A DNA stretch of 64,000 nucleotides from an uncultured Candidatus Saccharibacteria bacterium (GCA_964471165.1 CAYYEX010000004.1:22378-86377); one strand, 5' to 3'. Positions 35,306 through 57,970 are shown, counted from the first letter of the stretch. Translations and numbers: made by a program. Notes: generated from the letters alone by a model not told the origin.

Positions 35306-35337
35306 CCTGCTCCCCTCGCACTCGCGAGCGCACGAAC

Positions 35338-35489: not shown

Positions 35490-36533
35490 ATGCGTTTCAA
35501 TCACGCAGCATCATTTTTCGCCGCGGTCCTGGGTGCACAACTCTACAGCCGCAAAGCGAACAAGCGCCTCTCGGACAAGCTCTCGCTTGAGTTAGACCGA
35601 CGTCAGGCGCGCGACGAACTGCCACCGCGCGAGGTGGACCTCCAGCTCTTGCACAACAAGTTCATGCGGTTCAGGCCGCGACTCATCGGTGCAGTGGGAG
35701 CGTACTGCCTCCTGAGCGGACAACATCATCCAGATGTCGTTCAAAACGGGGGGTTGGATTTGTTCCGCACCATGTGGTACCTCGGTGCAACACAGGACGA
35801 CCTTATCGACGAAATTCCCTCGCAAAACGGCATCGAGCGCAGGCACGTCGAGCTCAGAATCCGCGACGCGATGTTTGGTACGGACCGTACCATCTATCGC
35901 GCGGCGTTGCGCGTGTTCTCGGACGACCTGTCACGGAGTGACTTCCCGCCCGAAGCCCAGCAGTATCTGCGACGCAAAGTGCGTGACTGGTACCGGTTCC
36001 TCGTCGAGCAGGAGGCAAAGGTACTCACGATGCACTCGTCGGAACTCGGTTACTGGGAGTGTCGCCGATACCGCGAGGAGCAGAACATGCGCGTGGCGAA
36101 ATTGCTCACCGCATGCCTCAATGGCCGGCGTTGTCACGAACCGGAGATGCAGGTGCTCGAGACGCTGGTACCTATGCTCTCGTTCCGGACGCAAATCATC
36201 GACGACGTCGCCGACGTCTTCGAAGACCTCGCAATGGGTCGCCCGAGTTTTTGCATGGGCGCACTCAACGACAATCCGCACGAACTGCACAACGTTCGGG
36301 AGTTCGCACGAAAGAATCCGCGCGTGAAGAAGATGCAGGTGCAGCTTTTTCGAAAGCTCGCACCAAAAAGTGCATCCCTCATCGAGTCGACCTACGACCA
36401 GTACGGCGCGGATCTGCGGACACGCAGCGAACCGTTTGTGCTGCTCGCGACAGTCGGCGACATGTTGTACCGCTGGTTCCCGACGTTTCGAGATGCCATC
36501 TACCGTCTCCAGCCGCGTTGGGCAAACTTCTAG
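35490..36533 (+). CDS. isoprenoid synthase-fold protein, squalene/phytoene synthase-like
   Basis: Two Asp-rich motifs about 130 aa apart: YLGATQDDLIDE and IIDDVADVFEDLAMGRPSF. Compare CrtB/SQS DDxxD and DV.ED...GR.Y.P. GC-rich gene. Confidence 0.5.
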   Translation: MRFNHAASFFAAVLGAQLYSRKANKRLSDKLSLELDRRQARDELPPREVDLQLLHNKFMRFRPRLIGAVGAYCLLSGQHHPDVVQNGGLDLFRTMWYLGATQDDLIDEIPSQNGIERRHVELRIRDAMFGTDRTIYRAALRVFSDDLSRSDFPPEAQQYLRRKVRDWYRFLVEQEAKVLTMHSSELGYWECRRYREEQNMRVAKLLTACLNGRRCHEPEMQVLETLVPMLSFRTQIIDDVADVFEDLAMGRPSFCMGALNDNPHELHNVREFARKNPRVKKMQVQLFRKLAPKSASLIESTYDQYGADLRTRSEPFVLLATVGDMLYRWFPTFRDAIYRLQPRWANF

Positions 36534-37324
36534 CCTCGCAGAAATGCGAGTATGGGGGCAAGGAACGCTGACGGCTGCTCTATGTGCACAAGATGACCCG
36601 CATCCGGTATGACAACGAGTGTCGAGCCGGCAATGCGCAACTGAATACGCGACCCGATACTCACTGCAGTAATCGGGTCGCTTTTTCCATATATGAGTAG
36701 TGTTTTTGCCTTCACTCTCGAGAAAATGGTGTCATCGCCTTTCTGGTGCGTGCGCATGTATACGGCCAGCATTCGCTTTCCGTGTTCACGTTCGACTCGT
36801 GCGTTATCGGCAAACTCCCGCGGGGTGAGAAATGTTTTATGCATATAGAAAAGAAATCCTGGCATAAGCCTGCCTACCGTGTGAATGATTGCCGTATTGA
36901 GTTTTCGAAACCAACCGACTCGATTCCAGTCACCCATTGATACAAGAAGAAGTTTTGGAGCGCCAAATGTAGCAGCATACGAGAGCGCCACGCGCGCACC
37001 AAACGAGTGTCCGAGTACCGCGTAGGGAGACAGCGAGAGCGCTTCACAAAACGAATGTACGAACTGCGCGTATTCTTCAATCGACCAGGCACTCGGCGGT
37101 GCTTCGCTCATCCCGAAGCCTGGCATATCAAGCGCATATACCGTGTATTCTTGCGCAAGATTGGATATCACCCCGCGCCATGTCACTGCACTCTGTGCCC
37201 ACCCATGCACGAGGATGAGCGCCGGACCTGTGCCAACAGAAAGGTACCTGGTAGTGAGTCCCCCTATGACGACTGTTCGGTATGAAGGGGTCTCTTGCAT
37301 GTATATCAAAATATGATGCCTCAA
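36530..37324 (-). CDS. alpha/beta-fold hydrolase
   Basis: ILVHGWAQS...AVLGHSFGARVAL (GxSxG nucleophile elbow)...PDAGHLVHIEQP. Confidence 0.75.
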   Translation of the reverse strand: MRHHILIYMQETPSYRTVVIGGLTTRYLSVGTGPALILVHGWAQSAVTWRGVISNLAQEYTVYALDMPGFGMSEAPPSAWSIEEYAQFVHSFCEALSLSPYAVLGHSFGARVALSYAATFGAPKLLLVSMGDWNRVGWFRKLNTAIIHTVGRLMPGFLFYMHKTFLTPREFADNARVEREHGKRMLAVYMRTHQKGDDTIFSRVKAKTLLIYGKSDPITAVSIGSRIQLRIAGSTLVVIPDAGHLVHIEQPSAFLAPILAFLRG

Positions 37325-37384: not shown

Positions 37385-38227
37385 TTATTTTCGTTTGCCG
37401 ACTTTTCGACGAGTGACAACGAAGACGTTTGAGTACTTCTTTGGTCGGCGAGTCTTTTGACCCTTGCCGGACGGCTTACCCCACATCGTTCGCTGTCGTC
37501 GGTGACCGCGACCCTGCTTACCTTCACCTCCACCGTGTGGGTGGTCAACTGGGTTCATAACCGTTCCTCGAACTGTCGGGCGAATGCCCATCCAGCGAGA
37601 GCGACCTGCTTTTCCGATTACCACGAGGCGATGTTCGTCGTTGGATACTTCGCCCACACATGCCCATGCGGTTGAGATAACACGGCGCACTTCGGTGCTT
37701 GGCATTTTGAGGTGCGTGTAACCTGCGTCTTGCGCAACAACTTCTGCGTAGTTACCTGCAGAACGTGCAATTGATGCCTTAACTCCTGGCTGGATTGATA
37801 CGTTGTAAACAAATGTACCAACCGGCATGTTGCCGAGTGGAAGACGGTTTGCTGTCTTCATTGGTGCAGTTTCAGAAACGATGAATGTATCGCCGACTTT
37901 CACTTTCTTTGGGAGCACAACGTAGCGCTTTTCACCGTCCTTGTAGACTGCAAGACCGATGAATGCAGAGCGGTTCGGGTCGTACTCGATGGTCGCAATT
38001 TTTGCCTCGATGTTCTTCTTGTCGAACACAAAGTCAACATTTCGGTATTTGCGCTTGTGTCCACCGCCATGATGACGGGTCGTGATGCGACCGAATGAGT
38101 TGCGGCCTCCTGTTGAGCGCTTGCCCTTCAAGAGCGACTTCGTTGGCTTATCGCCGGAGAGAAGCTTGCTATATTCGATGCGCGTCATGCCGCGCGTACC
38201 TGGTGTGACTGGTTTAAGGTGTTTCAT
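37385..38227 (-). CDS. rplB: 50S ribosomal protein L2
   Basis: MKHLKPVTPGTRGM...GGGHKRKYR...HPHGGGEGK. Confidence 0.95.
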   Translation of the reverse strand: MKHLKPVTPGTRGMTRIEYSKLLSGDKPTKSLLKGKRSTGGRNSFGRITTRHHGGGHKRKYRNVDFVFDKKNIEAKIATIEYDPNRSAFIGLAVYKDGEKRYVVLPKKVKVGDTFIVSETAPMKTANRLPLGNMPVGTFVYNVSIQPGVKASIARSAGNYAEVVAQDAGYTHLKMPSTEVRRVISTAWACVGEVSNDEHRLVVIGKAGRSRWMGIRPTVRGTVMNPVDHPHGGGEGKQGRGHRRQRTMWGKPSGKGQKTRRPKKYSNVFVVTRRKVGKRK

Positions 38228-38228
38228 A

Positions 38229-38594
38229 TTATGAGATGGTGATGCTGTCTCCGCTCTTGAGGTAGACGTATGCCTTCTTGCCGCCGCCCTTCATGCCGGT
38301 CTTTCCAGTGCGCGCGTGACGAACGGACTTCATCGGGATGGTAACCGTGCGAATCATTCGCGGCGTTACCTTGTAGAGCTGGTGAACCGCACGAATGATG
38401 TCGCGCTTGGTTGCACGCTCAGAGATGTTGAAAGTGTAGACCTTTGCATCTGAGTGCATCGTTGCCTTCTCTGTGATGCGTGCGTGAGAGAGGATGTGCG
38501 AGAGGTCGCGCTGAGCACCAGATACTTTTTCAGTCGTCGCGACTGCATCCGCTTTCTTGGTCGTCTTTTTTGTTTTGCTTGAGAAGAGTGCCAT
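38229..38594 (-). CDS. rplW: 50S ribosomal protein L23 (N-terminal basic extension; start uncertain)
   Basis: ILSHARITEKATMHSDAKVYTFNISERATKRDIIRAVHQLYKV. Confidence 0.9.
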   Translation of the reverse strand: MALFSSKTKKTTKKADAVATTEKVSGAQRDLSHILSHARITEKATMHSDAKVYTFNISERATKRDIIRAVHQLYKVTPRMIRTVTIPMKSVRHARTGKTGMKGGGKKAYVYLKSGDSITIS

Positions 38595-38606
38595 ATAGAT
38601 TTCGGT

Positions 38607-39305
38607 TTATTTCGCCTGGGTTGCCTTTTCGAGCTTTGCCTTTGATGCGCGCTTTGAAATTGCACTCACTGATTCAGTTGGGTTTTCAATCACGATGTAC
38701 TTGTATTTGAGCACGTTTACCGGGTTGAGGTTTGAGACGTTCTCGAATGTTACAGAGCCGATGTTGCGGAAGCTCTTCACCGATGCGTCTGACTTATCCG
38801 TAGATGCAATGAGTGCAAGATTCTGTTTCTTTGTTCCCGAGAGCTTCTCGAAACCCTTCACGCTCGAGAGTGCGATGAGTGCCTTCTTTGCTTCTGCTGT
38901 CTTTGGAGCCTTGAAGCCGAACGAATCGACGAACAAGAGTTCACCGTCGCGCATTTTCTGAGAGAGTGCAACAAAGAGAGCCTTTGCGCGCATCTTCTTC
39001 GGGATTTCGCGACCGAAAACCTTTTCGTTGCGAGGGCCGTGCGTTACACCGCCTCCCTTCCAAATCGGAGAACGAGATGAGCCGTGACGAGCGCGGCCGG
39101 TTCCCTTCTGCTGCCATGGCTTCTTACCGCCTCCGCGAACTTCGCCGCGACCCTTGGTGTGAGCAACATTGGTGCGGGCATTTGCCTGCATCGATACAAC
39201 TACCTGGTGAATGAGTGCTGCATTCCACGGAAGGTCGAATACGTTCTCAGGGAGCGTCACTTCGCCTGCCTTTTTACCCTTGATGTCGAAAATATCTGTT
39301 TTCAT
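38607..39305 (-). CDS. rplD: 50S ribosomal protein L4
   Basis: PWNAALIHQVVVSMQANAR...GGGKKPWQQKGTGRARHGS. Confidence 0.95.
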   Translation of the reverse strand: MKTDIFDIKGKKAGEVTLPENVFDLPWNAALIHQVVVSMQANARTNVAHTKGRGEVRGGGKKPWQQKGTGRARHGSSRSPIWKGGGVTHGPRNEKVFGREIPKKMRAKALFVALSQKMRDGELLFVDSFGFKAPKTAEAKKALIALSSVKGFEKLSGTKKQNLALIASTDKSDASVKSFRNIGSVTFENVSNLNPVNVLKYKYIVIENPTESVSAISKRASKAKLEKATQAK

Positions 39306-39314
39306 AGTATTGAA

Positions 39315-39932
39315 TTAGCCGCGAATCTCGATGAGTGTACCAGGGCGACCTGGCAATGCACCTGAAATGAGAATCTGATTGTTTGCGGCATCTACCTGGA
39401 GTACACGAAGGTTCGTGACCGTAACACGGTCGTTACCCATGCGTCCTGCCATGCGCATCCCCTTTACCACGCGGCCACCTGCGCGACCACCGCCACCGAT
39501 GCTTCCTGGAGCGCGCTCCTTGTTTTTCTGACCGTGTGAGCGAGGACCGCCGGAAAATCCGTGTCGCTTTACGACACCCTGGAAGCCCTTACCCTTGGAG
39601 ATTGCAGAAACCTGCACAACATCTCCAGGAACAAAAATTGAAATATCGATGGTATCTCCGCGCTTGAGTTCTCCTGCTTCCTGTCGGTTTTCGCGGATGA
39701 ATCGTGCGCTTGGGAGGTCCTTTAGGTGGCCCATAACGGCCTTACCGAGATTCTTTGCGGCGCGGGTGCCCATGCCGAGTTGCACTGCATCGTAGCCGTC
39801 CTTTTCCTTACCCTTTACCTGGGTAACGGTGAGCGGACCAGCAGAAACGATAGTTGCAGCAGAAACAACACCCTTCTCGTCGAAGACCTGTGTCATTTTG
39901 CCCTTGGTTCCGAGCATGAATTTGCCTGCCAT
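39315..39932 (-). CDS. rplC: 50S ribosomal protein L3
   Basis: MAGKFMLGTKGKMTQVFDEKG from the ATG at 39932. There is no rpsJ upstream within this window. Confidence 0.9.
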   Translation of the reverse strand: MAGKFMLGTKGKMTQVFDEKGVVSAATIVSAGPLTVTQVKGKEKDGYDAVQLGMGTRAAKNLGKAVMGHLKDLPSARFIRENRQEAGELKRGDTIDISIFVPGDVVQVSAISKGKGFQGVVKRHGFSGGPRSHGQKNKERAPGSIGGGGRAGGRVVKGMRMAGRMGNDRVTVTNLRVLQVDAANNQILISGALPGRPGTLIEIRG

Positions 39933-40104
39933 AATATCTATTGTTTGTTTTGCAAAAAAATTGACCCGCATAGCGAGCCGTGCCTTCGAGGATTCGAAGA
40001 TAAGTTCGCCAGTGGTCCCCGACCGGTATGCCGGAGGGACTTGGGTTGAGGCAGTATACGGAACTATGAGAAATATGCAAATCCGGCCTTAGTTGGGCGG
40101 TAGC

Positions 40105-45821: not shown

Positions 45822-47333
45822 ATGGTACGTGTGGATACGGGCAAAAACAACGGCCCCGAGCGCGTGACCCTGTGTGATATTATCGCGAACATGATAATAG
45901 ACGGTGAGCTGCTCTCGGATTCCGCCAGAAAGACCATGTCCCCGGGAGAATCCGCAGTGAGCGCCTTCATTTCATTCATTGAGAGAAGGCTAAACGTCAC
46001 GGTCGTACGCGAGCTGCGCAAATACACTTGGGGAAATCCGCGTCTAGCCTCGGCAGCCGAACTCGCAGTTCTTTTGCAAGATAGACACATCGCACAGTCA
46101 TTTCAAAGAATGTCCCAGCGCGCAGATGAACCACGCCTTCTGCGCTGGAATGCGGTAGGCTTTGGAGAGTCGGAACATCGTTCAGGCGGGGCTTCATTTT
46201 CCATCGAAGAGAACGCACTCTATGCATGCGTTGCAGAGTCTCTCGAACGGTATCTCTGGTCGGAGAAGTCCGATTATTTCCGAAAGCCGATGCACGGAAC
46301 CGAGCGTGAGGTGGGTTCACGCACCCCTATCATTCCAGTCGCACGATTCGCAGGATTTTCCTGCGAACAACGTGCACAAAACCCGAAACTCTTTATCTCA
46401 CCAGAGACATCTTTCCTGTGGATTGAGGCGGTCTCGGTTATAACCGGACAGAATGTCCACGTGCCAGCCCAAGTAGTCAGCGGCTACAACGATGCGCAGC
46501 GCACAGGTGTGCCTGCCGAGCCGAGCATCCGACCGCGGATAACAACAGGCCTCGCCACTTGGCGAGATGTTTTGGGAGCACGTCTGCGCGGTGCGCTCGA
46601 GGTGATTGAGCGCGACGCATACATGATTATGTGGCTCAATCAGCTCGTACTTCCGCGCATCAATCTCAAAGATATCTCGGCGAGAAATGCGGAAGTACTT
46701 CGCCAAATACAAAGTTGTGAACGCTATGGATTACGTGTTCATGCGATTCGTATGATTACCGACGCCCCCACATATGCAATATGTGTTGTTGTCGAAGATA
46801 CATATACTTCTTCGCCAAAATATTCGGTGGGTCTGAAAACTGGGCACTCAATCGCCGATGCTATTCTCGGGGCATTGTCCGAGGCACTTCGCGCACGTTG
46901 GAGCACTCGCCACAAAGTAGAACAAGGAACCTTGTGGGATGAAGCGCGCCCCGTTTCCGAAATTGGCCACACGGAGCGACTCGTGTTCTGGGCAGATGCC
47001 GGGCGTTCCCACAAACTTGATTTTTTGATTGCTGGACAAGAGACACGTTTTACTCCTGAGGAGTGGGAGTCTGACAGCGACGCGACTCATCTGAAACGCC
47101 TTGTCTCGTGGTGTAAAAAGACGGGCTACGAAATGATTTCTGTGGGACTCGACACTCCCAGCAACAATCCGCTGCCATGGCACGTGGAAATGACCATCAT
47201 TCCCGAATTACAGCCCATGTATTTGCACGAATCGAAACATGTTCTCGGAGGAACTCGAATCTCGACTATCCCGAGTATGTTCGGATACCCCGCGCGAGCT
47301 CCTTACCTCGATACCCCGCATCCATTCGCCTAA
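45822..47333 (+). CDS. YcaO-domain protein (azoline-forming cyclodehydratase family)
   Basis: SFSIEENALYACVAESLERY and ALEVIERDAYMIMWLNQ match the YcaO ATP-binding signatures (S...E..ERY, E.IERD). ATG at 45822. Confidence 0.7.
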   Translation: MVRVDTGKNNGPERVTLCDIIANMIIDGELLSDSARKTMSPGESAVSAFISFIERRLNVTVVRELRKYTWGNPRLASAAELAVLLQDRHIAQSFQRMSQRADEPRLLRWNAVGFGESEHRSGGASFSIEENALYACVAESLERYLWSEKSDYFRKPMHGTEREVGSRTPIIPVARFAGFSCEQRAQNPKLFISPETSFLWIEAVSVITGQNVHVPAQVVSGYNDAQRTGVPAEPSIRPRITTGLATWRDVLGARLRGALEVIERDAYMIMWLNQLVLPRINLKDISARNAEVLRQIQSCERYGLRVHAIRMITDAPTYAICVVVEDTYTSSPKYSVGLKTGHSIADAILGALSEALRARWSTRHKVEQGTLWDEARPVSEIGHTERLVFWADAGRSHKLDFLIAGQETRFTPEEWESDSDATHLKRLVSWCKKTGYEMISVGLDTPSNNPLPWHVEMTIIPELQPMYLHESKHVLGGTRISTIPSMFGYPARAPYLDTPHPFA

Positions 47334-47337
47334 ACAT

Positions 47338-48066
47338 ATGACTCGCTTCATTTCTCATCTTCACTCTGACTTGCGTCACGCACGCACCACGCGGCGAGGT
47401 GCTACAAAGGCTGCGTCAGAGGTGCCGCTTGGACTTCATAAAAAGTATCCGCGCATGAAGCGCATACCGCTGCCAGATGTGACACTTCCTGACGCAACAA
47501 TCACTGAGGTCCTCCGTACTCGTCGTTGCGCCGAGTACGGTGAAATTGCGTTCGATATTACATTCAAAGATTATGCCGCACTCTTCAGCATGACGCTCAA
47601 GCAGCATGAAAATACAAACCACCGTCCCTACCCTTCCGGAGGTGGACTCTATCCCATTGAGACATATCTGCTGACTCCTGTATTTGATAGCCAACCGGGT
47701 GGCGTATTCCACTACAATCCAAGCGAACACGCACTTGAATACCTGTGGCCACTAAAGGACAGTGCCGGTTTTAGGAAGCTTTTGCCTCGTGCAGAACCTC
47801 TTGAATTCAGCGCGCTGCTCGTTTTCACTTCGGTCTGGGACCGCTCCTCTGCCAAGTACGGCGATTATACTTATCCGTTCGGACTTCTCGAGGCCGGGCA
47901 CATGTCGCAAAATATTTTGCTCGCAGCCACAGCGCTCGGAATCGCAGCTCGGCCAATGGCCGGCTTCAACGATGGGGCGCTCATCGATAATCTAGATGTC
48001 GACCCCGACTACGAACAGCCTATTCATACCGTTACCCTATCGAAAACGCGCGAAAAACGCTCGTAA
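47338..48066 (+). CDS. SagB-type dehydrogenase (nitroreductase superfamily; azoline oxidase-like)
   Basis: RPYPSGGGLYPIETYL is the TIGR03605 hallmark (R.YPSAG..YP.E.Y). The ATG lies 4 nt after the YcaO stop. Confidence 0.65.
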   Translation: MTRFISHLHSDLRHARTTRRGATKAASEVPLGLHKKYPRMKRIPLPDVTLPDATITEVLRTRRCAEYGEIAFDITFKDYAALFSMTLKQHENTNHRPYPSGGGLYPIETYLLTPVFDSQPGGVFHYNPSEHALEYLWPLKDSAGFRKLLPRAEPLEFSALLVFTSVWDRSSAKYGDYTYPFGLLEAGHMSQNILLAATALGIAARPMAGFNDGALIDNLDVDPDYEQPIHTVTLSKTREKRS

Positions 48067-48101
48067 TTGAATATACGTGGCGACAGAGTATCCTGTCTCT
48101 C

Positions 48102-49490
48102 ATGCCGCTACTTTCGAAGAACTTTCCTCACCTCTCTCGTATCGTCTTCGAGATGCGTCGCGTCTATCGAAAACTGTTTTCCGTCCAGGAGATTGAGTCC
48201 TCTTCACAGCTCCAATGGATGCTCGGAGCATCACTCCTCTACCTATTTTTCACTTTCAACAACTGGGCGGGCAACACAAGTGTAACGGTCGAGGCGGCAC
48301 AACAGGGGCGAGCCGTCTGTTGGCCGTATTTTCAACATTGTTCGGATTACTTCTTCCTTCACATGTTGCCGTACGGGTATTCGCAGACAATTTTTTACAT
48401 GGTGCTCTACGGCGTGATGATGCTCATCGTCTGGGCCATGTGGCGACAGAAATGGACCACTGCACATGCACTGTACGCACTTTTGATTCTATGGGAGATG
48501 GCGGTCGTGTACGTCTTTTCTTTTCAGTCGGCAGCACCATACCACTACTATCACATCATTCTCGGATTGATGTTGATATTCGCGTCACACAAAGAGTTTT
48601 TCCTGAAACTTTCGTTCGTGCTAATGTACTTCCTTTCCGCCACAACGAAGATTGATTCCACTTGGATACTCGGTTCGTACTTTACGTCGCTCGAAAATGG
48701 ACTGCCGATTTTTCCCGGATGGTCTACACCGCTGCTTACCAACGCGGTGATGTTTATGCAGATGATAGGTAGCTGGTTTTTGATTTCAAAACGGGCTGCG
48801 CTGCGTCATATCGCGTTCGTGTACTTCATGTTCTTCCACTTCTATTCAGGTGTATTTGTGTTGTATGAATATCCAACGGTAACACTCCCGACCCTCGCAG
48901 TACTTTTTGGCCCCATGTATCGCTATACGCCGATTCCCTTTGGGAGAAAAACAATTGTCGGCTGGGTAATACTCGTGATTGTGTGTGCCGTGCAAGCATT
49001 GGGATTCATAGCACCCGGAGACAGACGCATTACGATGGAGGGAAACAAGTTCGGCATGTTTATGTTTGAGGCAAATCATCAGTGCGCCGTAACGATAACA
49101 AGCTACACGGACACAAAAGTTTCTTCATCGACTCCTGGATTTGCACCGGACGGTTGTTCGGGGCAATACTGCCACACGCGATCAACTTCAAAACGAACAG
49201 CTGGGATTCTCGCTCGAACTGATGTCTACGAAAGTGGCAGCTCATGGAACCGCTGCTATCCGTATATCTGGTGGTCGAAACTTCATCTACAGTGTGGGCT
49301 GCGCCCCGGTCTCACGCGCGTCGCATTGCGCATCGACCACTCAATCAACGGCGGCCCCTTCTACAGAATTGTCGATGAGCCCGACGTATGCTCCCTTTCG
49401 TATCTCCCATTCGGACCAAATTCTTGGATTAAAAGTCCACCAGAAGCCCCCGCGATAGGCTTACCGGTACGCAATGCGTATCACTACTAA
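48102..49490 (+). CDS. polytopic integral membrane protein (8 or more TM); possibly HTTM/VKGC-like, a family often seen next to RiPP clusters
   Basis: The N-terminal 300 aa are very hydrophobic and W/F/Y-rich; the C-terminal ~150 aa are soluble and Cys-containing. I cannot verify the HTTM assignment by eye. Confidence 0.5.
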   Translation: MPLLSKNFPHLSRIVFEMRRVYRKLFSVQEIESSSQLQWMLGASLLYLFFTFNNWAGNTSVTVEAAQQGRAVCWPYFQHCSDYFFLHMLPYGYSQTIFYMVLYGVMMLIVWAMWRQKWTTAHALYALLILWEMAVVYVFSFQSAAPYHYYHIILGLMLIFASHKEFFLKLSFVLMYFLSATTKIDSTWILGSYFTSLENGLPIFPGWSTPLLTNAVMFMQMIGSWFLISKRAALRHIAFVYFMFFHFYSGVFVLYEYPTVTLPTLAVLFGPMYRYTPIPFGRKTIVGWVILVIVCAVQALGFIAPGDRRITMEGNKFGMFMFEANHQCAVTITSYTDTKVSSSTPGFAPDGCSGQYCHTRSTSKRTAGILARTDVYESGSSWNRCYPYIWWSKLHLQCGLRPGLTRVALRIDHSINGGPFYRIVDEPDVCSLSYLPFGPNSWIKSPPEAPAIGLPVRNAYHY

Positions 49491-49688
49491 ATATGGAAGC
49501 AACTACTACGTATATTGTTCTGCGCGAGCTCGCCGGTAATTCGCCCAACTCGCTCAATGCCGTGCAGATGTTACTCGAGCCGCATATCGACCTCTTGGTG
49601 ATGCTCTGGCGTGTGGCATGGATATGCACCGCAGTGACCGTAATCGCAATTTACGCGCAGGCATATCGCAGACATCGAATGAATCGAT

Positions 49689-51326
49689 ATGAGTGACCGC
49701 GCCCGACTGCGCGAGGCGATTGCAGGAGCGTTTAAGTACCGCGACCGGGATGGCGCAGTTATCATCGATCAATCGGGGTCCCAATCGAGGTGGATTGCTG
49801 ACTTCCGCTCGATTGTTCTTCGTTCAGAATGGCTCAACCTATATGCAAAACTTTTTTGGGAGACTTACGGAAATCGCTATCCATTTCAGGTTGCTGGTAT
49901 GGAAACCGTTGGTATCGCGCTCGTCGCAGCAATTGTGATGAAAGGGGCTGAGATTGGGAAACCGGTCAATGGTTTCTTTATCCGAAAGTCTCGAAAAAAA
50001 GATGGTCTCATGAGAGCTATCGAAGGAACCTTAACCAAGGAGCCCGTGATTCTTGTCGACGACCTCATCAACTCCGGAAACACATTCGACAAACAACTCT
50101 TACTGCTCGACGGAATGGGTTTGAGCGTGACTGATATCTTTGCAGCCCTCCGATTCCGCCCAACTGAAGCATATACATTCGCTCAAGAGCGCAACATCGC
50201 GGTCACGGCACTTTTTAGTCTCAAGGACTTCGGTCTGCCGCTACGACCTGTGAGTGAGCCCGTGGTTCCACATTCCTCATTTTCGAAACTGTGGCACTAT
50301 CAGGCACCACATCCGTCACTCCAAGTTGTTGCAGAAAAATCCGCTCCTACCCTTTTTGAGAATCTAGTCCTCTTTGGATGTGATGACGGTGTTCTTCGCG
50401 CACTTGATACTGAAAGTGGCACCCTCGTCTGGGAGTTTACAATCGGACGACATCGCGGTGGTAAAGGGATTCTTTCGAGTCCTGCCGTACACGATGATGT
50501 TGTCTACTTCGGTGGATACGATGGAAACGTTTATGCGCTTGATGCGCGTACAGGGAAGAAAAAATGGTCCTATGAAGAGGCAGATTGGGTGGGCTCGTCG
50601 CCGGCAATCGACATAGCACGAGGGCGCCTCTATATCGGTCTGGAATTTGGCCTCTTCGGGAAAAAGGGCGGTATCGTTGCACTCAAACTCGCAGACGGCA
50701 GCGAGATTTGGCGCGACACAACCGTCGCATTCACACACGGCTCCCCCCTCTACATTCCCGAAGAGGATATGGTGGTTATCGGTAGCAATGACCATATCGT
50801 GTACGCCTACGACGCTGGGAACGGTGCTCGTTTGTGGACATTTGCAACAGACGGAGACATCAAATCCAAACCCGCATACGACACAAAACGCCGCCATATC
50901 GTGGTGAACTCCATGGATGGTTCCTGCTATGTATTGAGAGCGCGCGATGGAGAACCGCTGTTTGCAAAAGAAGCCGAGTTTGGATTTTACTCATCTCCGC
51001 TCATACACGGTGACACTATATATTCAGCATCGCTCGACAAGACACTCTACGCGTTCAATGCAGAAACATATGCAGACGAGTGGGTGTTTGAAACGCAGGG
51101 TCGAATATTTTCCTCTCCTACTCTATTCGATGACTCACTGTGGGTGGGTTCAAATGATGGTCGGCTCTACGAGCTGAATCCGCAGACAGGTGCACTTAAA
51201 AACTTCTTTCAAGCAACTGAGCGGATTGTGAATGCGCCCGTGTATGAAGTCTCGTCACAACGCATTTTCGTGCCAACACAGGCAAACGAAATCTACTGCA
51301 TCAAAAAAGAGTTCGTTCAACATTAA
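49689..51326 (+). CDS. fusion protein: N-terminal type-I phosphoribosyltransferase (OPRT-like) domain plus a C-terminal PQQ-repeat beta-propeller
   Basis: PVILVDDLINSGNT (PRPP-binding loop) in the first 200 aa; then 6-8 repeats of the ..DG.(L/V)YALDA.TG...W.. type. Confidence 0.6.
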   Translation: MSDRARLREAIAGAFKYRDRDGAVIIDQSGSQSRWIADFRSIVLRSEWLNLYAKLFWETYGNRYPFQVAGMETVGIALVAAIVMKGAEIGKPVNGFFIRKSRKKDGLMRAIEGTLTKEPVILVDDLINSGNTFDKQLLLLDGMGLSVTDIFAALRFRPTEAYTFAQERNIAVTALFSLKDFGLPLRPVSEPVVPHSSFSKLWHYQAPHPSLQVVAEKSAPTLFENLVLFGCDDGVLRALDTESGTLVWEFTIGRHRGGKGILSSPAVHDDVVYFGGYDGNVYALDARTGKKKWSYEEADWVGSSPAIDIARGRLYIGLEFGLFGKKGGIVALKLADGSEIWRDTTVAFTHGSPLYIPEEDMVVIGSNDHIVYAYDAGNGARLWTFATDGDIKSKPAYDTKRRHIVVNSMDGSCYVLRARDGEPLFAKEAEFGFYSSPLIHGDTIYSASLDKTLYAFNAETYADEWVFETQGRIFSSPTLFDDSLWVGSNDGRLYELNPQTGALKNFFQATERIVNAPVYEVSSQRIFVPTQANEIYCIKKEFVQH

Positions 51327-51330
51327 GAAA

Positions 51331-51362
51331 ATCCGGATGACGTGGCCATCCGGACTTTTTCT
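51331..51362. terminator. bidirectional terminator hairpin (TCCGGATG-ACGTGGC-CATCCGGA flanked by AAAA/CTTTTTC)
   Basis: Lies between the convergent genes ending at 51326 (+) and 51391 (-). Confidence 0.5.
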
Positions 51363-51390
51363 TGATGACAGGTACAGTCCCGTCAGATAT

Positions 51391-51636
51391 TCAGCCGGCG
51401 CGACGCGGCTTGCCGCTCACCGGGGTTGCAGCGGGCTGCTTGTTCAGCTTCGCGTTCTCGCACGATGCGTTGGCGCGACTGGGCGAGAGGCGCGGATTCT
51501 TGTTCATCTTGCACTGCGAGCACTGCATCATCGGCATCTTCGCGCACTGCGCGAAGGCGACGGTGGGCGCGCCGATTGATGACGCTGCGTAGACAACTGC
51601 TCCAGCGAGCAGGCCGAGGAACGATTTTCTCATAGT
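51391..51636 (-). CDS. small secreted Cys-containing peptide (81 aa precursor, about 50 aa mature)
   Basis: GGGAGGA 8 nt upstream of the ATG at 51636. Signal peptide MRKSFLGLLAGAVVYAASSIGAPTVAFA, then QCAKMPMMQCSQCKMNKNPRLSPSRANASCENAK... The track start at 51750 is an extension. Confidence 0.45.
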   Translation of the reverse strand, partial: TMRKSFLGLLAGAVVYAASSIGAPTVAFAQCAKMPMMQCSQCKMNKNPRLSPSRANASCENAKLNKQPAATPVSGKPRRAG

Positions 51637-51777
51637 GGAATCCTCCCTGGTCGGACGCGATGGATATCCATCGACACATCTCCGATACCGATTTACACGG
51701 TACCCCGCTTGACGATATGTGTCAAGAGCGTCCAAGCACCGATTTGGCATTGGGGCGTATCATGCGAAGATTGCCCC

Positions 51778-52557
51778 ATGAACGTTTTTGAATCTGTACC
51801 TGAGTTTGTAAATCTTGATAATCGCGTGTCACGCACATTCAGTCCCATTTCAGCCGAGCAAATGCTACACAAGCACGAAAGCCTGCTCCCCCGCGAGCTC
51901 GTCGAAGGAAAAACAGTGCTCGATCTCGGATGTGGCATCGGTGCGACCGGCCATTGGTGCCTCAGCAACGGTGCGGCGCACTACACCGGCGTCGAGCCGC
52001 AGCAAACGTACATGGAAACGGCCGATTCGTTGTTGAAAAAATATTATCCCGGTCGTGCTGATATCGTTCACACTTCGCTTGAACAGTACCTACGTGAGCA
52101 CAACACCCAATTTGACGTTGTCACCGTACTGGCCGTATTGCATGCATCGGTCGATATATGTAGTCGGCTCGAACAGATTACGACTCGTACCCGCGAAGTC
52201 GTGGCAATCGAAGAACTGCTTCCCCGTCTCAATGCAAAGGACCCATCGTTCAATGGTGTCGAGTTTTCACAAACCGAAGGAATAAACTTGGCTGACACGA
52301 ACGCATCGCTCTCGGGGCGGGGCGCTCGCATTTCACCCCTCGGCCTCGCATTTCTTATGGAGGGTTTCGGTTTCGAATCATCGGGGGTACTCCCGATACG
52401 CCCTATTTCTGATACTGTTGACAACTTCAACGCCCCTCAGAAGCCCAGTAATGCTCGCTACGTAATGAGATTTCGCCGAACCGGTACTATGCGCGGGAGC
52501 GTCTCGGAAAATATGCTCACCGGAAACAGGAGCGCCATTAAACCATGGCTGGTATGA
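51778..52557 (+). CDS. class I SAM-dependent methyltransferase, CmoB-like (carboxymethyl-transferase-like)
   Basis: [28 protein letters not shown] vs E. coli CmoB [40 protein letters not shown] vs FDTVFSMGVLYH. Confidence 0.5.
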   Translation: [259 protein letters not shown]

Positions 52558-53198
52558 CAGATCGTTGGGAGTTCGACGAGTCAGTTGCGAAACGCTTCGA
52601 CGAAGAGGCCCGCAAGCACATCCCTCATTACGAGGAAGTCATCCAAGCGTCGCTCTCGATTGCACTCGATGTTTTTCCAGACAAAAAGGCACGGGTACTC
52701 GATGTCGGTTCCGCTCTCGGGCACACACTCGAAGTATTTCGGGCGGCGGGATTTGAAGATGTGCATGGCGTCGATAACTCAGCGGCGATGCTCGCTCACT
52801 CGCGAGTCCGCGATAACCTGATACTTTCTGACTCGTTTCCAAGCGATGCCGGGATGTTCGATGTTGTAACTGCAAACTGGACACTCCACTTTATTCGTGA
52901 CGCATCCCTGCGCGCACTCTACATCCACGACATTTCTAAAAGTTTATCCGCGGAAGGTGTGTTCATACTGACCGACAAGATGGAAGCAACGCAAGACGAA
53001 TACGATGGCTATCACAACTTCAAACGCACGATGGGTCTCTCTGATACTGAGATTAATGAAAAGGCTCGTGCTCTTGAGGGAGTGCTGATTCCCTTCCCGG
53101 TGCAATGGTACGAAGAGATTCTCAGTCAGACAGGTTTCCGGTCAGTTGAAGTAATCGATTCGCAATGGTGTTTCAATACCTTCGTATGTCGAAGATAA
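52545..53198 (+). CDS. CmoA-like methyltransferase-fold protein (carboxy-S-adenosyl-L-methionine synthase-like)
   Basis: WEFDESVAKRF / IPHY / DVGSALG / VDNSAAMLAHSR / VVTANWTLHF / HNFKRTMGLSDTEI / SQWCFNTFVC line up with CmoA WTFDERVAEVF / VPGY / DLGCSLG / IDNSPAMIERCR / VVLNFTLQF / HDFKRANGYSELEI / FQCFNFGSLVA. It overlaps the CmoB-like gene by 13 nt. Confidence 0.6.
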   Translation: MAGMTDRWEFDESVAKRFDEEARKHIPHYEEVIQASLSIALDVFPDKKARVLDVGSALGHTLEVFRAAGFEDVHGVDNSAAMLAHSRVRDNLILSDSFPSDAGMFDVVTANWTLHFIRDASLRALYIHDISKSLSAEGVFILTDKMEATQDEYDGYHNFKRTMGLSDTEINEKARALEGVLIPFPVQWYEEILSQTGFRSVEVIDSQWCFNTFVCRR

Positions 53199-54412
53199 AT
53201 ACACTGTTAGTCGCCGCAGGAATCATAGCCGTGTTTTCAGTATTTTTGGGATACATATTCACTCAAACCAATGTACGAGGAACGCAGAGTGTGGAACACG
53301 CTCTGGATTCTCTTTCCCCCTGCTTCACTGCGCGCAACCCCGAAGATAAAGCTGACCTTGCGTGTCTCGAGCGCGAAGTGAACGAACTCCTCTCCAAGTT
53401 CCCGACCCACGCTGTAATGAGCAAGATTAGTGCGAGCACATCTCCACTGGTGGTAGTGAGAAATTGTCATCTTATCGGGCACATGATTGGGCACAAAACA
53501 TTTCAGAGGACACCCTCGCTCGAGGATGCATACGAGCAGTGCACCGCGAGTTGCAAAAACTCGTGTGTTCACGGCGTCACAACCGAAGCAATATCTCAAG
53601 AATTGGGCGAGTCGTACGTGGCAGAGGATTTGTCACACGCTGACGGCGAGACCCTCGCAACGATTGGTAAACGGTACTGTGACCGACAAAAGGTGCTCTG
53701 TCACTCAGTGGGTCATCTATTACGCATTGCGCTCAAGTCGTATCAAGCCGCGCTTCCTATATGCGAACAGATGGGTACTAATAAAATCGATTGTTATAAG
53801 GGAGTATTCATGGAAGATGCGGCGTCTATCGAGCTCACAACGCGAGGACTGCCCGATCAAACAATTGCTCAAGAAAATTACGTGTCCCCATGCGCATCGG
53901 TACCAACGAAGTATGGACGGCAATGTTTCTGGTACCTCCATCTTTATCAGTCGAGCCTGTTCGAAAAGAACGGCATCTCCACAACGGCAGAACAATTGCG
54001 GATATTCCGCAATGCATGTGATTCTTTACCCGATCAACAGCGTGCATGGTGTTACTACGGCATGGGAGGAAATGCATACCGAGATCGTGACGAAGACGGA
54101 TCTCCTGTCGACATAGTGACATTTTGCGACCCGATTATTCGCTCAGTAGATAGGACACAGTGTACGGTGGGCATTGTGCGCTCGTATTTTACAACGGTCC
54201 TCCCGCGCCCTGACAGGGCACGGACATTTTGCGAGCAGCAGGCAAACGTTCAGTTGAAAAACACATGCTATGAGACAGTATTTACCCTCGAGAGTGAAAG
54301 TCTCGCAACGTCGTCGATAGAAGCTTTGTGTGGACCTGTTCCCTCGATAGCATGCACTGCCGCATTCAACACATACACACCCCCCCGCAACCCAATCGAG
54401 TCCGACGACTAA
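53186..54412 (+). CDS. Cys/His-rich secreted protein, paralog family member 2 of 3
   Basis: Signal anchor MSKINTLLVAAGIIAVFSVFLG; motifs as for 41496..42740. Confidence 0.55.
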   Translation: MSKINTLLVAAGIIAVFSVFLGYIFTQTNVRGTQSVEHALDSLSPCFTARNPEDKADLACLEREVNELLSKFPTHAVMSKISASTSPLVVVRNCHLIGHMIGHKTFQRTPSLEDAYEQCTASCKNSCVHGVTTEAISQELGESYVAEDLSHADGETLATIGKRYCDRQKVLCHSVGHLLRIALKSYQAALPICEQMGTNKIDCYKGVFMEDAASIELTTRGLPDQTIAQENYVSPCASVPTKYGRQCFWYLHLYQSSLFEKNGISTTAEQLRIFRNACDSLPDQQRAWCYYGMGGNAYRDRDEDGSPVDIVTFCDPIIRSVDRTQCTVGIVRSYFTTVLPRPDRARTFCEQQANVQLKNTCYETVFTLESESLATSSIEALCGPVPSIACTAAFNTYTPPRNPIESDD

Positions 54413-55521
54413 TGCATATGAATCGACTTATTTACTACAAATCCGGCGCTGTAACAACACCGGAGGCACGTCTTCTCCCCGGAATGGACCGTTTCGCATC
54501 GTTTTTTGAAATTACAAACGACACAGCAATGCCAGTCGATCGCACAGGAACCATACGTTTTCCCATTCGAACCCATTCTCTTTTTTCAATGCCGACACTG
54601 CGTCCCTATACAAAATCATATTCAGAAACATGTGACGAGCGGGCTGTCGAGATTCTCAAGCGCGCTACTGCATTGAATGTCGATGTGCGAGTAATGTGGT
54701 CTGGTGGAATTGATAGCACGGTTGCACTTGTCGCACTGCTTAAAAACGCAACAACCAAAGAGGAGCTGCAGCGCATCGTTGTATTACTCTCCGAGGAATC
54801 AATATCGGAAAATCCCCGCTTCTTTGAAGCACATATCCACGGAAAGATCCGGTACGACTCTGCAATCATGTTTCCATACCTTCTTGGCACGAAGCACATC
54901 CTTGTAAGCGGAACGCATAACGACCTGCTTTTTGGAAAAGATATTGTAGGATCGATCGTGAGTCGGTTCGGCATGTCGAAAGTTCTCAGTTTAATAGACC
55001 GAGATATTCTCCGTACTTTTTTAGCAGAAAAGACAGGTGCTGCCGATACTGCTGAATTTTATATTGAATTATTTGAAAAACTGCGCGCGATTGCTCCTCT
55101 GCCAATTGACTCAATCTACAATCTGTTCTGGTGGTTCGACTTCTGTACAAACTGGCAAAAAGTGTACACGTCAATTCTTCCGTTCACTGCAGAGCGAAAC
55201 ATACCACTTATTACGAGTGAATATGTGGATACGTACTACATGCCTTTTTTCAATACGGAAGATTTTCAACTGTGGAGCATGAACAATCTTGATAAACGAA
55301 TAAAGGACACGTGGGAGTCCCATAAGTGGCCGGCAAAAGACATGATTTACGATTTCACAAAAGACGCTGAGTATCGTGACACAAAGATAAAACGAAGTTC
55401 ACTCTACTTCCTCATCGTGCAACAAAAGTCTGTGAACTTTATTGATGAGTCGTTTCGATTTTTTGACGAAGCGACCAGTACCGATTACTACGACCCAAAG
55501 AACGATTTCAGAGACGAGTAA
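54412..55521 (+). CDS. PP-loop (SGGxDS) ATP-pyrophosphatase superfamily protein, paralog 1 of 3 (asparagine-synthetase-C-domain-like / adenine nucleotide alpha hydrolase)
   Basis: VRVMWSGGIDSTVALVALL at about residue 115. The start overlaps the previous stop (TAATG). C-terminal block FNTEDFQLWSMNN...KWPAKD..Y.FT.D..YR..K.KR.SL is conserved in all three copies. Confidence 0.6.
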   Translation: MHMNRLIYYKSGAVTTPEARLLPGMDRFASFFEITNDTAMPVDRTGTIRFPIRTHSLFSMPTLRPYTKSYSETCDERAVEILKRATALNVDVRVMWSGGIDSTVALVALLKNATTKEELQRIVVLLSEESISENPRFFEAHIHGKIRYDSAIMFPYLLGTKHILVSGTHNDLLFGKDIVGSIVSRFGMSKVLSLIDRDILRTFLAEKTGAADTAEFYIELFEKLRAIAPLPIDSIYNLFWWFDFCTNWQKVYTSILPFTAERNIPLITSEYVDTYYMPFFNTEDFQLWSMNNLDKRIKDTWESHKWPAKDMIYDFTKDAEYRDTKIKRSSLYFLIVQQKSVNFIDESFRFFDEATSTDYYDPKNDFRDE

Positions 55522-55559: not shown

Positions 55560-56234
55560 ATGGACACGTGGTATGCATTGCTCGATATCGGAACAAAAGC
55601 GGTGCTGACGATAAGCCAACGACAAAGCGCCATGGTTTTTTTACGCGAGTGCACCATTGATACAGCACTTTCAAATGGCGTTAACACACCCCGGTATACT
55701 CACTCGTGGATACACAAGGAGCCTTTTTTTCTTGCTCGGTTGCGCCCGGAATTCTATCCTGAATGGACATGGGATGTACAATCGCGTTCATTCCGTAAAA
55801 CACTCCCTGAGCTGGTAACCCCCGCTCTGAGGGCGCGCTCCCGCCTTGCCACGGTAAAGGTCCGCACAATATCTCAGATGATGTCACAAGTCTCCATGAC
55901 GCGTCAGCATTTCCAATCCGGTGTTGATTTCCAAGAGACTGTCTATTTAACGAAGAAAGCCCAGGCCCAGCAATTCGTGCAAAATGGTTACGACGAATCC
56001 GATATTTTGAACATTCCCTACGTGCTTCAGTATGCCGACTTAAAAGGTCTTTCACTTCGTCAGGCAGCGGAGGATATACTTTTTCGTGCAAAACTCGACG
56101 ACGAACTACTTGCGCGTACCGAACTTCTGCGCCTAACGTATTTCGAAAAGGTGAAACAGGCAACAAACCCCGACGATCTGCCAAGAATACTGAGTGCTTT
56201 CCATACCGCAGCATTCAGATCGAGACCTGTATGA
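55560..56234 (+). CDS. conserved ~225-aa partner protein (paralog 1 of 2) preceding a PP-loop gene
   Basis: Aligns with 60721..61440 (e.g. YLTKKAQAQQF...IPYVLQYADL...AAEDILFRAKL...TELLRLTYFEKVKQ...DDLPRILSAFH.AAF). No known motif. Confidence 0.45.
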   Translation: MDTWYALLDIGTKAVLTISQRQSAMVFLRECTIDTALSNGVNTPRYTHSWIHKEPFFLARLRPEFYPEWTWDVQSRSFRKTLPELVTPALRARSRLATVKVRTISQMMSQVSMTRQHFQSGVDFQETVYLTKKAQAQQFVQNGYDESDILNIPYVLQYADLKGLSLRQAAEDILFRAKLDDELLARTELLRLTYFEKVKQATNPDDLPRILSAFHTAAFRSRPV

Positions 56235-57325
56235 AAAACCTCTTGCTAGCTCACGCGAGAACCGTCGTCTCCCCCGCAAACCAACACGTACCCGGGATAA
56301 AGACTCTCACTGCTTTTTTCGATATCTACCGTACGGGTGTAATCCCGATTGATCGGACAAACACATTTCGCACCCCCGTGCGCAGCACAATGCTTTTCCC
56401 TATGCCCACGTTTCGCATTCACAAAGGTACCTACGAAGATGCCTGCAATGCGCGAGCAACGGAAATCATTCAGCGAGCAGAGACGTTGGATTGTCCAATA
56501 TTTTCGTTCTGGTCGGGTGGAATCGATAGTACGTGCGTACTTGTCTCCCTCTTAAAGAACTCTACACAGCAACAGCGAGAACGCATCACTGTACTCATGT
56601 CAGAGGACTCAATTGCGGAAAACCCGAACTTTTATGCCGAGCATATTCACGGCAAAGTGCGGCATGACTCGGCGGGAATGTTTCCATACATGCTCGGGAG
56701 CGAGCGAATCTTTGTGAACGGTGAACACAATGACCAGTTGTTCGGTTCCGACATTGTCGCCGCCTTCATAAATCGATTCGGTGCCGCCATCATTCACCAG
56801 CCCTTCGCGCGAGACACAATACTCACGTTCTTCACTGAACGCACGAAAGACGTAGCAATGGCGGTCTTTTATCTTGAGCTGTTTGAGCGACTCAAGGCGG
56901 TAGCACCCGTACCAATTGAAACGAACTATGATTTCTTTTGGTGGATTAATTTCGCGACAAAGTGGCAGAGTGTGTACATGCGTACCCTTACATACACGGC
57001 ACCACGCAACCTGCACCTCATCAATAAAACGTATCTTGATAAATATTACGCACCATTCTTTAACACCGAGGAGTTTCAACTCTGGAGCATGAATAACCCG
57101 GACAAGAAAATTAAAGACACATGGAAAACATACAAGTGGGCTGCGAAGGAATTAATCTATGAATACACAAAGGATGCTGAGTATCGTGATAACAAAATAA
57201 AACGCGGCTCCCTCGTGATGCTCACAGACCAGCAAAAACCCTCCCCGTTCATCACCGACACGTTTCAGTTCCCCCAAACCCTTGCACCCGAAGAATATTG
57301 CGACCCGGAGAACGATTTTGTGTAA
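56231..57325 (+). CDS. PP-loop (SGGxDS) ATP-pyrophosphatase superfamily protein, paralog 2 of 3
   Basis: IFSFWSGGIDSTCVLVSLL; ATGA overlap with the partner gene. Confidence 0.6.
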   Translation: MKNLLLAHARTVVSPANQHVPGIKTLTAFFDIYRTGVIPIDRTNTFRTPVRSTMLFPMPTFRIHKGTYEDACNARATEIIQRAETLDCPIFSFWSGGIDSTCVLVSLLKNSTQQQRERITVLMSEDSIAENPNFYAEHIHGKVRHDSAGMFPYMLGSERIFVNGEHNDQLFGSDIVAAFINRFGAAIIHQPFARDTILTFFTERTKDVAMAVFYLELFERLKAVAPVPIETNYDFFWWINFATKWQSVYMRTLTYTAPRNLHLINKTYLDKYYAPFFNTEEFQLWSMNNPDKKIKDTWKTYKWAAKELIYEYTKDAEYRDNKIKRGSLVMLTDQQKPSPFITDTFQFPQTLAPEEYCDPENDFV

Positions 57326-57388: not shown

Positions 57389-57970
57389 TCAGTGCTCGTG
57401 CTTGTGGCCGTGATGGTGCCCATGCCCGTGGTCGTGACTGTGGTCGCTCGGATGCTTCATCCTGTCCGGCGCGTTCACGTCCTTGTGCGGATGCCCGAAA
57501 GCGATGATGACCAGCGGTTCCCGCGCGGTTTCCGGCGGACCGGTCACCGCATGCGGGTGTTCACCCGGGATGAACATGGTGTCACCTGGCCCGACAACCC
57601 GGTCCTCCCCGCTGATGTGGACAGACCCGACACCCGAGAGAAACAGCAAGACATGGTCGCCGACATGCTCGTGGAGCGCAAAGGCGCTCCCCGGCTGCAT
57701 CTCGATGCAATCCACACCGATGTCGGTTCCATCAACCTTCATGCCGACCGCGCCCATGCGTCCGCGAATGCCCTTGAGCGGCTTGCCGTCCGAATCATAC
57801 ATCTCGGACAAGTCGCCCTTCAATACATTTCGCAGATGCTGACCGTCAATCCACTTGCGTGCTGCTGCACGCATTGCCGCAACTTGAACCGATTCCACCG
57901 GCACCTCCATTGATTCGAAACCCAATCCGGTTTCCGTGCGCAGTATGCACAATATGACCTCATATTTCAA
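57389..57970 (-). CDS. cupin-domain protein with a His-rich C-terminal tail (HDHGHGHHHGHKHEH)
   Basis: Cupin motifs G(X)5HxH...(E)...G...P.G..H (HEHVGDHVLLFLSG...MFIPGEHPHAV); the His tail suggests metal binding. Start uncertain. Confidence 0.55.
   Translation of the reverse strand: MKYEVILCILRTETGLGFESMEVPVESVQVAAMRAAARKWIDGQHLRNVLKGDLSEMYDSDGKPLKGIRGRMGAVGMKVDGTDIGVDCIEMQPGSAFALHEHVGDHVLLFLSGVGSVHISGEDRVVGPGDTMFIPGEHPHAVTGPPETAREPLVIIAFGHPHKDVNAPDRMKHPSDHSHDHGHGHHHGHKHEH

Follow-up and report, generated by a model that had tools for sequence, protein, structure and literature searches.

The DNA analysed here (hereafter the window) is a 64-kb stretch of a 298-kb contig (ENA ERZ27247837 k141_321895), and the gene under study is the minus-strand ORF 51391-51633, which comprises 80 codons beginning with ATG and followed by TGA. 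The initial annotation had given this ORF as 51391-51636, with a product of 81 aa; the ATG lies at 51633-51631 and the product is 80 aa long, an identical protein being called by the public gene caller on the source contig. As was first noted, and as the coordinates and strands confirm, the peptide gene is convergent with the PRTase-propeller gene (49689-51326), and adjoins on its other side the cmoB/cmoA-like gene pair, which is divergent from it and whose first methyltransferase ATG is at 51778. The closest related contig (GCA_020049755.1, hereafter L002) carries an orthologue at the same position, and it is used below for comparison. The features of the peptide gene are as follows.

51720-51725, minus strand: TTGACA, read from the sequence as the -35 hexamer of the gene's own putative promoter; TTGACA and the 17-nt spacer also occur in L002
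51697-51702, minus strand: TACCGT (TACCAT in L002), candidate -10 hexamer of this predicted promoter, 17 nt past the -35
51648-51689, minus strand: hairpin-forming 5'UTR block of 42 nt, which ends 1 nt before the Shine-Dalgarno sequence
51641-51647, minus strand: Shine-Dalgarno sequence GGGAGGA, 7 nt before the ATG (L002 equivalent, AGGGAG)
51550-51633, minus strand: predicted signal peptide, residues 1-28, MRKSFLGLLAGAVVYAASSIGAPTVAFA, with a predicted signal peptidase I cut after AFA
51448-51549, minus strand: cysteine core of the mature peptide, Q29-K62, with Cys 30/38/41/58; pN 0.197 vs pS 0.661 (against L002); AF2 pLDDT ~80
51394-51447, minus strand: basic C-terminal tail, L63-G80, rich in Pro/Ala/Lys/Arg; pN 0.56, close to pS 0.55; pLDDT ~52; apparently unconstrained
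51391-51393, minus strand: stop codon TGA
51328-51358, scored on both strands: predicted bidirectional intrinsic terminator, common to the PRTase-propeller gene

The strong Shine-Dalgarno sequence claimed at the outset is thus present. The promoter pattern TTGACA-17-TACCRT is common to both genomes, and the leader, the Shine-Dalgarno sequence and the terminator are kept in L002 as well, where a hairpin followed by a T-run occupies the equivalent position downstream of the orthologue. A consensus promoter scan made no call for the peptide gene, because the -10 hexamer matches the consensus at only 3/6 positions. With a terminator on one side and a divergent promoter on the other, the gene is monocistronic and, as read from its sequence, is a self-contained expression unit possessing its own predicted promoter, leader, Shine-Dalgarno sequence and terminator. 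A longer version of the ORF, which would start at the ATG at 51750 and comprise 119 aa (101 aa as called in L002), was considered and rejected, as the conserved -35 and -10 hexamers fall inside the extension, the apparent amino-acid conservation of which follows from a nearly invariant nucleotide block. The methyltransferase operon is preceded by a separate promoter, TTGGCA-17-AAGATT-GCCCC-ATG, which is apparently leaderless and is kept in L002. The two promoters stand back-to-back, about 20 nt apart in both genomes, and co-regulation of the peptide gene and the methyltransferase operon is possible. At the start of the first methyltransferase gene (51744-51780), the ATG occurs 5 nt past AAGATT and there is no Shine-Dalgarno sequence, an arrangement conserved in L002.

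The 5'UTR block is identical at 37/42 nt (88%) to positions 4087-4128 of L002, in a pair of sequences with saturated synonymous sites. It can be folded into a hairpin with an outer stem (UCGGA/UCCGA) and an inner stem formed by the palindrome CGATGG-N4-CCATCG (51658-51673), which is unique within the window and was found only at the window and L002 loci. Of the five positions at which the two blocks differ, three belong to the loop and another preserves G.U pairing. Folding predicts the hairpin for both sequences, at an energy no better than that of shuffled sequences (z about 0). This block could be a hairpin that stabilises or regulates the mRNA, or a DNA operator.

The peptide gene also stands out by its GC content at third codon positions (GC3), which reaches 0.80 (0.885 in the mature part) as compared to a mean of 0.55 (sd 0.05) for 46 long ORFs of the window, including the ribosomal protein genes; the GC3 of the L002 orthologue is 0.73, as compared to 0.60 locally. 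Since this bias persists despite saturated synonymous divergence, it is maintained and does not represent the fading trace of a recent transfer.

Conservation and predicted product of the peptide gene

An open frame is in itself weak evidence for a gene at this place, because all six frames are open (across 51383-51750) in a patch of 64% GC, as compared to about 51% for the window. Coding is raised above chance by the following lines of evidence. First, the GC contents at the three codon positions of the peptide frame are 0.54/0.57/0.80. Second, a positional orthologue exists, the 76-aa protein P0123, which is encoded in L002 between the orthologous propeller and methyltransferase genes and is 48-52% identical to the window peptide. 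Third, every gap in the nucleotide alignment of the window and L002 genes is a multiple of three. Fourth, pN is well below pS in the core, where the JC-corrected dN/dS is about 0.14 with saturated pS, the signal peptide is under intermediate constraint and the C-terminal tail is about neutral, all these values coming from a single pairwise comparison in a family of two (window and L002). The residues invariant in the pair read AFAQCAKM...C.QCKM.KN.RLSP..ANASC, and the cysteine spacing C-x7-C-x2-C-x16-C is the same in both copies. From these data, we regard it as very probable that the ORF is a real protein-coding gene with purifying selection acting on its cysteine core. Conservation in a related genome, on which the initial annotation had staked its proposal, therefore exists in the form of the L002 copy, and is limited to this one sister lineage.

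As far as the sequence searches reach, the family is lineage-restricted and consists of the window and L002 copies only. A word-indexed search of 5.8 billion proteins returned the query itself only, and an exhaustive phmmer search of 1.84 billion representatives returned one true homologue (P0123) together with three repeat-rich proteins. Degenerate patterns scanned against GTDB genomes, JGI metagenomes and IMG/VR yielded no homologue, and neither did a tblastn search of phages and plasmids with the mature peptide. A peptide HMM was run against the six-frame translations of 89 related loci, namely 85 loci (80 of which come from a genome scan with 153 propeller loci) and the four loci L086-L089, and it detected the window/L001 and L002 copies only. 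Neither Pfam (no match even at E<=10) nor NCBIfam contains a matching family, the best match in a PDB profile search had E=1, and no paper describing the peptide or the YcaO/SagB/PRTase-propeller cluster was found in the literature.

That the product would be a small secreted Cys-rich peptide, as first proposed, is borne out by its sequence features and by their conservation in P0123. As judged by eye and with a crude heuristic, the N-terminus consists of MRK, a 22-residue hydrophobic stretch, SFLGLLAGAVVYAASSIGAPTV, and AFA↓Q (the arrow indicating the predicted cut), thereby combining the positive n-region, the hydrophobic h-region and the c-region with small residues at -3 and -1 (AxA) of a Sec signal. 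The L002 N-terminus similarly reads MKRH, LMALVGVAAISIIA and SPAFA↓Q, and the region around the cut, AFA↓QCAKM, is invariant in the orthologue. Hence, the peptide is likely to be Sec-exported and cleaved, according to this prediction. The h-region of the window copy is long (~22 residues), so that this copy might, with a lower probability, have a signal anchor instead, while the L002 copy has a canonical signal of 23 residues. There is no lipobox ([LVI][ASTVI][GAS]C) at the predicted cut, as the residues before Cys30 are F-A-Q and the Gln at -1 is disallowed (likewise in L002), and no twin-arginine motif was read in the sequence.

The predicted mature peptide, QCAKMPMMQCSQCKMNKNPRLSPSRANASCENAK..., contains the four Cys and, for the several Met that had been announced, four Met; its length after the AFA↓Q cut is 52 aa, which gives a precise value to the "about 50" of the initial annotation. 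The region that follows AFA↓QC reads QCAKMPMMQCSQCKMNKNPRLSPSRANASCENAKLNKQPAATPVSGKPRRAG. The mature peptide has a mass of 5.6 kDa, a pI of 10.3 and a net charge of +9, with ten Lys and Arg for one Asp or Glu, and is devoid of Phe, Trp, Tyr and His; it has six Ser and two Thr beside the four Cys in 52 residues, and is not strongly enriched in them. The mature part of P0123 comprises 53 aa and also has a net charge of +9. The AF2 model, which was built on the two-sequence alignment and is of moderate confidence (mean pLDDT 64; about 80 for residues 31-60), has helices at 35-45 and 51-64; a Foldseek search of the PDB with this model returned nothing below E=2.3.

Neighbouring enzymes and the slot downstream of the propeller gene

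The cluster beside the peptide gene encodes a SagD-type YcaO protein, a SagB-type dehydrogenase, a 462-aa membrane protein, a 67-aa ORF and the PRTase-propeller protein, a fusion of an orotate-PRTase with a PQQ-propeller. It extends over 45822-51326 in the window, 5779-9638 in L003 and 4255-9710 in L004; it adjoins rplC in the window, and in L003 and L004 it is flanked by rpsJ and rplC. The rplC-rplD-rplW-rplB genes of the window (37385-39971) are a few genes away from the YcaO cluster. The propeller homologues with 50-65% identity all belong to Patescibacteria of the Paceibacteria/Minisyncoccia type (Kaiserbacteria, Nomurabacteria, "Paceibacterota"), and a genome scan found the propeller protein to be encoded at at least 153 Paceibacteria loci, taken from species-level genomes. 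No conserved precursor-like ORF was seen at the YcaO/SagB/PRTase-propeller cluster. The 67-aa ORF (49493-49696), which is flanked by the gene of the 462-aa membrane protein and by the propeller gene, the start of which it overlaps, encodes a C-terminal hydrophobic helix; ORFs of 62-68 aa are called at this position in L002, L004 and L086, with homology confirmed only for L002 (52%). As a separate observation, the ribosomal protein operon is not continuous: an alpha/beta-hydrolase gene and two uncharacterised ORFs (34520-37324) are inserted between its rplB (37385-38227) and rpsS (33854-34192) genes, and one of these two ORFs (35490-36533, plus strand) is rich in GC3 (0.73).

On the other side of the peptide gene, the labels CmoB and CmoA are weak: the 259/282-aa protein scored 31 bits (CmoB cutoff, 209) and the 217-aa protein 81.9 bits (TIGR00740 CmoA cutoff, 193.3). 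By their sequences, the two proteins are predicted class I SAM methyltransferases that are only distantly CmoA/B-like. The CmoB-like methyltransferase family has 18 members, and a metagenome scan with this protein found nothing. The enzyme occurs in four further contexts that are devoid of the peptide (L086-L089), with the CmoA-like partner nearby in three of them. The initial annotation had proposed looking for homologous small ORFs near cmoA-like genes; the peptide HMM found none in the six-frame translations of L086-L089, and L002 is, beside the window/L001 locus, the only one of the 89 loci with such an ORF.

Synteny between the window and L002 continues downstream of the peptide, in a block that comprises the methyltransferase pair and the genes for a Cys-rich protein with a membrane anchor, for one or two proteins with the SGGIDS motif, for a protein of 224 aa and for a cupin. 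The identities range from 40 to 76%; the 48% of the peptide is at the low end of this range. The membrane-anchored protein (53165-54412), which combines an N-terminal anchor with a large Cys-rich extracytoplasmic domain and has no Pfam match, is the least conserved of the block (40% identity). The best conserved (76%) is the cupin-domain protein (57389-57898, minus strand), which ends with a His-rich tail (HSHDHGHGHHHGHKHEH) and the gene of which has a GC3 of 0.73 and a GC content of 61%. The genes 54412-55521 and 56231-57325 encode paralogous proteins of about 365 aa with a WSGGIDST (PP-loop-like) motif and no Pfam match; a homologue stands beside the methyltransferase pair in L002, and a gene of the same length (364 aa) has the same arrangement in L089.

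The peptide gene occupies the slot downstream of the propeller gene, which we compared at other propeller loci. A small signal-peptide ORF was found within 150 nt downstream at 16/82 propeller loci, as compared to 78/618 other long genes (p=0.12). For a narrowed class, defined as a mature part of at most 100 aa with at least 2 Cys and a net charge of at least +3, the counts were 11/82 and 22/618 (OR 4.2, p=7e-4), the class being chosen post hoc and the loci being phylogenetically related. The slot ORFs are as follows.

Window: 51391-51633
L004: 9802-10032
L012: 8665-8880
L032: 8629-8859
L068: 8649-8873
L079: 8683-9027
Others, at further loci

These ORFs share near-consensus sigma-70 promoters, strong Shine-Dalgarno sequences and terminators. 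Their leaders are structured (mean z -1.0 vs -0.17 in 146 control upstream regions, p=0.004) and their GC3 (0.7-0.83) is 4-12 sd above that of the neighbouring genes, independently of the local GC3, which varies from 0.39 to 0.63. The number of Cys is even in 13 of the 16 small secreted slot ORFs. Among the slot peptides of other loci, there was no homology beyond the signal peptides and no Pfam family; a resemblance between the window core and the L012 peptide, seen by eye, failed a shuffle test. These features suggest one of two situations: a convergent intergenic site that is permissive and gathers foreign cassettes, or, rather unlikely in our view, a positional family that evolves fast.

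Alternative readings of the peptide

The slot might be a hotspot at which fast-evolving or repeatedly replaced genes, each monocistronic and strongly promoted, encode small secreted cationic Cys peptides and have in common their architecture and an anomalously high GC3, the window peptide being one member. We regard this as rather unlikely. If it were true, the class would consist of host-interaction or antimicrobial effectors or, with a lower likelihood, of hypervariable substrates of the conserved YcaO machinery; should the slot and GC3 pattern hold across relatives, it would be of wider interest.

Substrates of the neighbouring enzymes were among the possibilities first raised for the peptide. 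It would then be a RiPP precursor or substrate, the Cys and Ser of which are heterocyclised by YcaO and SagB (TOMM-like) or which is alkylated by the CmoB/CmoA-like enzymes, its signal-like N-terminus serving as a leader. Its position between the SagD-type YcaO and SagB-type dehydrogenase genes and those of the two SAM methyltransferases, its small size, the 4 Cys and 6 Ser of its mature part, its own strong promoter (like that of many precursor genes) and the enrichment of small cationic Cys secreted ORFs at the slot (with the above restrictions of a post hoc class and related loci) are all consistent with such a role. Like the linear azol(in)e precursors SagA and McbA, it is a small Cys/Ser peptide encoded at most about 4 kb from a SagD-type YcaO and a SagB-type dehydrogenase. 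Unlike them, it has a predicted Sec signal of canonical form with an AxA site, and we know of no TOMM precursor with such a signal; it is also encoded on the opposite strand behind a terminator, and it is not co-conserved with the enzymes. Indeed, against at least 153 loci with the cluster, a peptide homologue occurs only in the closest relative (only at window/L001 and L002 among the 85 related loci), a small Cys-rich ORF is missing near most cluster loci, and the slot ORFs have no common leader or core beyond generic signal peptides. Because the YcaO cluster and the methyltransferases occur without the peptide (in the case of the latter, at L086-L089), and because the peptide gene has its own expression unit, we reject the substrate as the leading explanation and consider it improbable; judging from these sequence comparisons, the peptide is probably independent of the neighbouring enzymes. 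Consequently, an annotation of the peptide as precursor or substrate should be avoided, for the adjacent YcaO/SagB genes as well as for those of the methyltransferases.

It is equally improbable, in our view, that the peptide is a metal or haem mini-protein, i.e. an exported carrier in which C-x-Q-C-K-M operates as a CXXCK-type haem c site or as a Cys/Met site for Cu or Zn. As regards haem, the phmmer search of 1.84 billion representatives lists the multihaem cytochromes P0122 (E=1e-9) and P0125 (E=2.5e-4), the core aligns to a cytochrome repeat, QCxQCHxNxNxxL[ST]..AN.xC, with CSQCK placed on CxxCH, the PDB yielded a single sequence match, to a multihaem cytochrome at its N-terminus (E=1), and cytochromes c are Sec-exported, as is predicted for the peptide. 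The motif common to the peptide and the cytochrome repeat reads QCxQC-x-x-N-x-N..L-S..AN..C. However, single repeats score at most 11 bits, and the low E-values are sums over 4-10 low-complexity repeats; the mature peptide, devoid of His, has Lys for the His of CXXCH (CSQCK; CAQCK in L002) and no second CXXCH. Furthermore, no Pfam cytochrome or HMA family was matched even at E<=10, and the 30 proteins scanned in the window (64 kb of the 298-kb contig) included no recognisable Ccm/Ccs component. To our knowledge, Patescibacteria are devoid of haem synthesis and respiratory chains, which also speaks against a haem protein. Because there is no His, no cytochrome profile match and a phylum with neither haem synthesis nor respiration, we do not accept the peptide as a cytochrome, and we treat the cytochrome matches, which are all at the sequence level, as a probable motif resemblance and not as membership. 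As regards metals, the window copy has an MxCxxC motif, and M33 and M43 are conserved, but the Met of MxCxxC is missing in L002. Disulfides are favoured over a metal site because the even Cys numbers of 13/16 small secreted slot ORFs suit disulfides.

Finally, a chance open frame in a GC-rich patch, with the conserved part being an RNA or regulatory element or a decaying foreign fragment, would agree with the six open frames, the anomalous GC content (64% vs ~51%), a 5' non-coding block better conserved than the whole CDS and a family of only two members, but it is very improbable in view of the frame-specific substitutions in the core (pN 0.20 vs pS 0.66), the indels in multiples of three, the GC3 periodicity, the conservation of the Shine-Dalgarno sequence, ATG, signal peptide and Cys spacing, and an Rfam search in which nothing attained the gathering threshold, the two sub-threshold matches that appeared with an E-value cutoff (24 bits for a gathering threshold of 49 and 17 bits for 44) being chance matches, and no tRNA was found.

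Proposed role and comparison with known systems

As the best explanation of the whole, we propose that the locus carries a lineage-restricted monocistronic gene for an exported cationic disulfide peptide with a surface-active role, a reading to which we assign a probability of about 0.5. Transcription from its own promoter would produce an mRNA with a structured leader and a strong Shine-Dalgarno sequence, ending at the terminator, from which an 80-aa pre-peptide would be translated. Export of this pre-peptide would proceed through Sec, and signal peptidase I would cleave it behind AFA, thereby releasing a 52-residue peptide of 5.6 kDa. In the latter, the four conserved Cys, most likely paired in two disulfides, would hold together a short core of two helices, behind which the basic tail would be flexible. 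Its charge, in the absence of a hydrophobic or aromatic core, would favour binding to anionic surfaces, i.e. the envelope of a host or a competitor, or the producer's own wall. From this predicted binding, the most likely role would be that of an extracellular cationic peptide (bacteriocin/defensin-like or effector).

Bacteriocin-like or effector peptides, two of the possibilities first raised, are the most plausible class for a product that is predicted to be small, Sec-exported, charged +9 and provided with four Cys, and that is encoded by a monocistronic gene. More specifically, charge, size and lifestyle lead us to put forward tentatively, at less than even odds, that the peptide acts on surfaces as an antimicrobial or effector of an episymbiotic member of the Patescibacteria. 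No bacteriocin family model of Pfam or NCBIfam was matched, no similarity to a characterised bacteriocin or AMP family emerged from Pfam/NCBIfam, the PDB or Foldseek, and there is no adjacent immunity or dedicated transporter gene, the neighbours being the PRTase-propeller and methyltransferase genes. Most Patescibacteria are regarded as obligate episymbionts, and hardly any of the molecules with which they contact, feed on or kill their hosts are known. A peptide that would be strongly expressed, exported, highly cationic and disulfide-bonded is a reasonable candidate for one of these molecules, and it is small enough to be synthesised.

Sec-dependent unmodified class II bacteriocins include enterocin P and lactococcin 972. 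The peptide resembles them in having a Sec signal and not a double-glycine leader, in being cationic and Cys-containing, and in being encoded by a short unit with its own promoter and terminator. It differs from them in having no sequence or profile similarity and no immunity gene, and in belonging to a member of the Patescibacteria and not to a Firmicute. Alpha-hairpinins form a helical hairpin with the spacing CxxxC...CxxxC. With these and defensin-like cationic peptides, the window peptide shares a length of about 50 residues, a high positive charge (+9), four Cys and two predicted short helices, but its spacing is C-x7-C-x2-C-x16-C, and the best Foldseek match has E=2.3.

A single orphan gene of which one orthologue is known is not remarkable in itself; hypothetical proteins that are small and secreted are common in the genomes of Patescibacteria. 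Arrays of hypothetical proteins with Sec signals are a feature of Paceibacterales and have been proposed to act in host interaction (PMC9600506). When compared by description, these genes and the peptide gene belong to the same bacterial group and encode unannotated Sec-signal proteins, whereas the arrays are conserved and multi-gene and the peptide is encoded by a single monocistronic gene with one orthologue. The peptide and its orthologue form a very small new family within an already known class of molecules.
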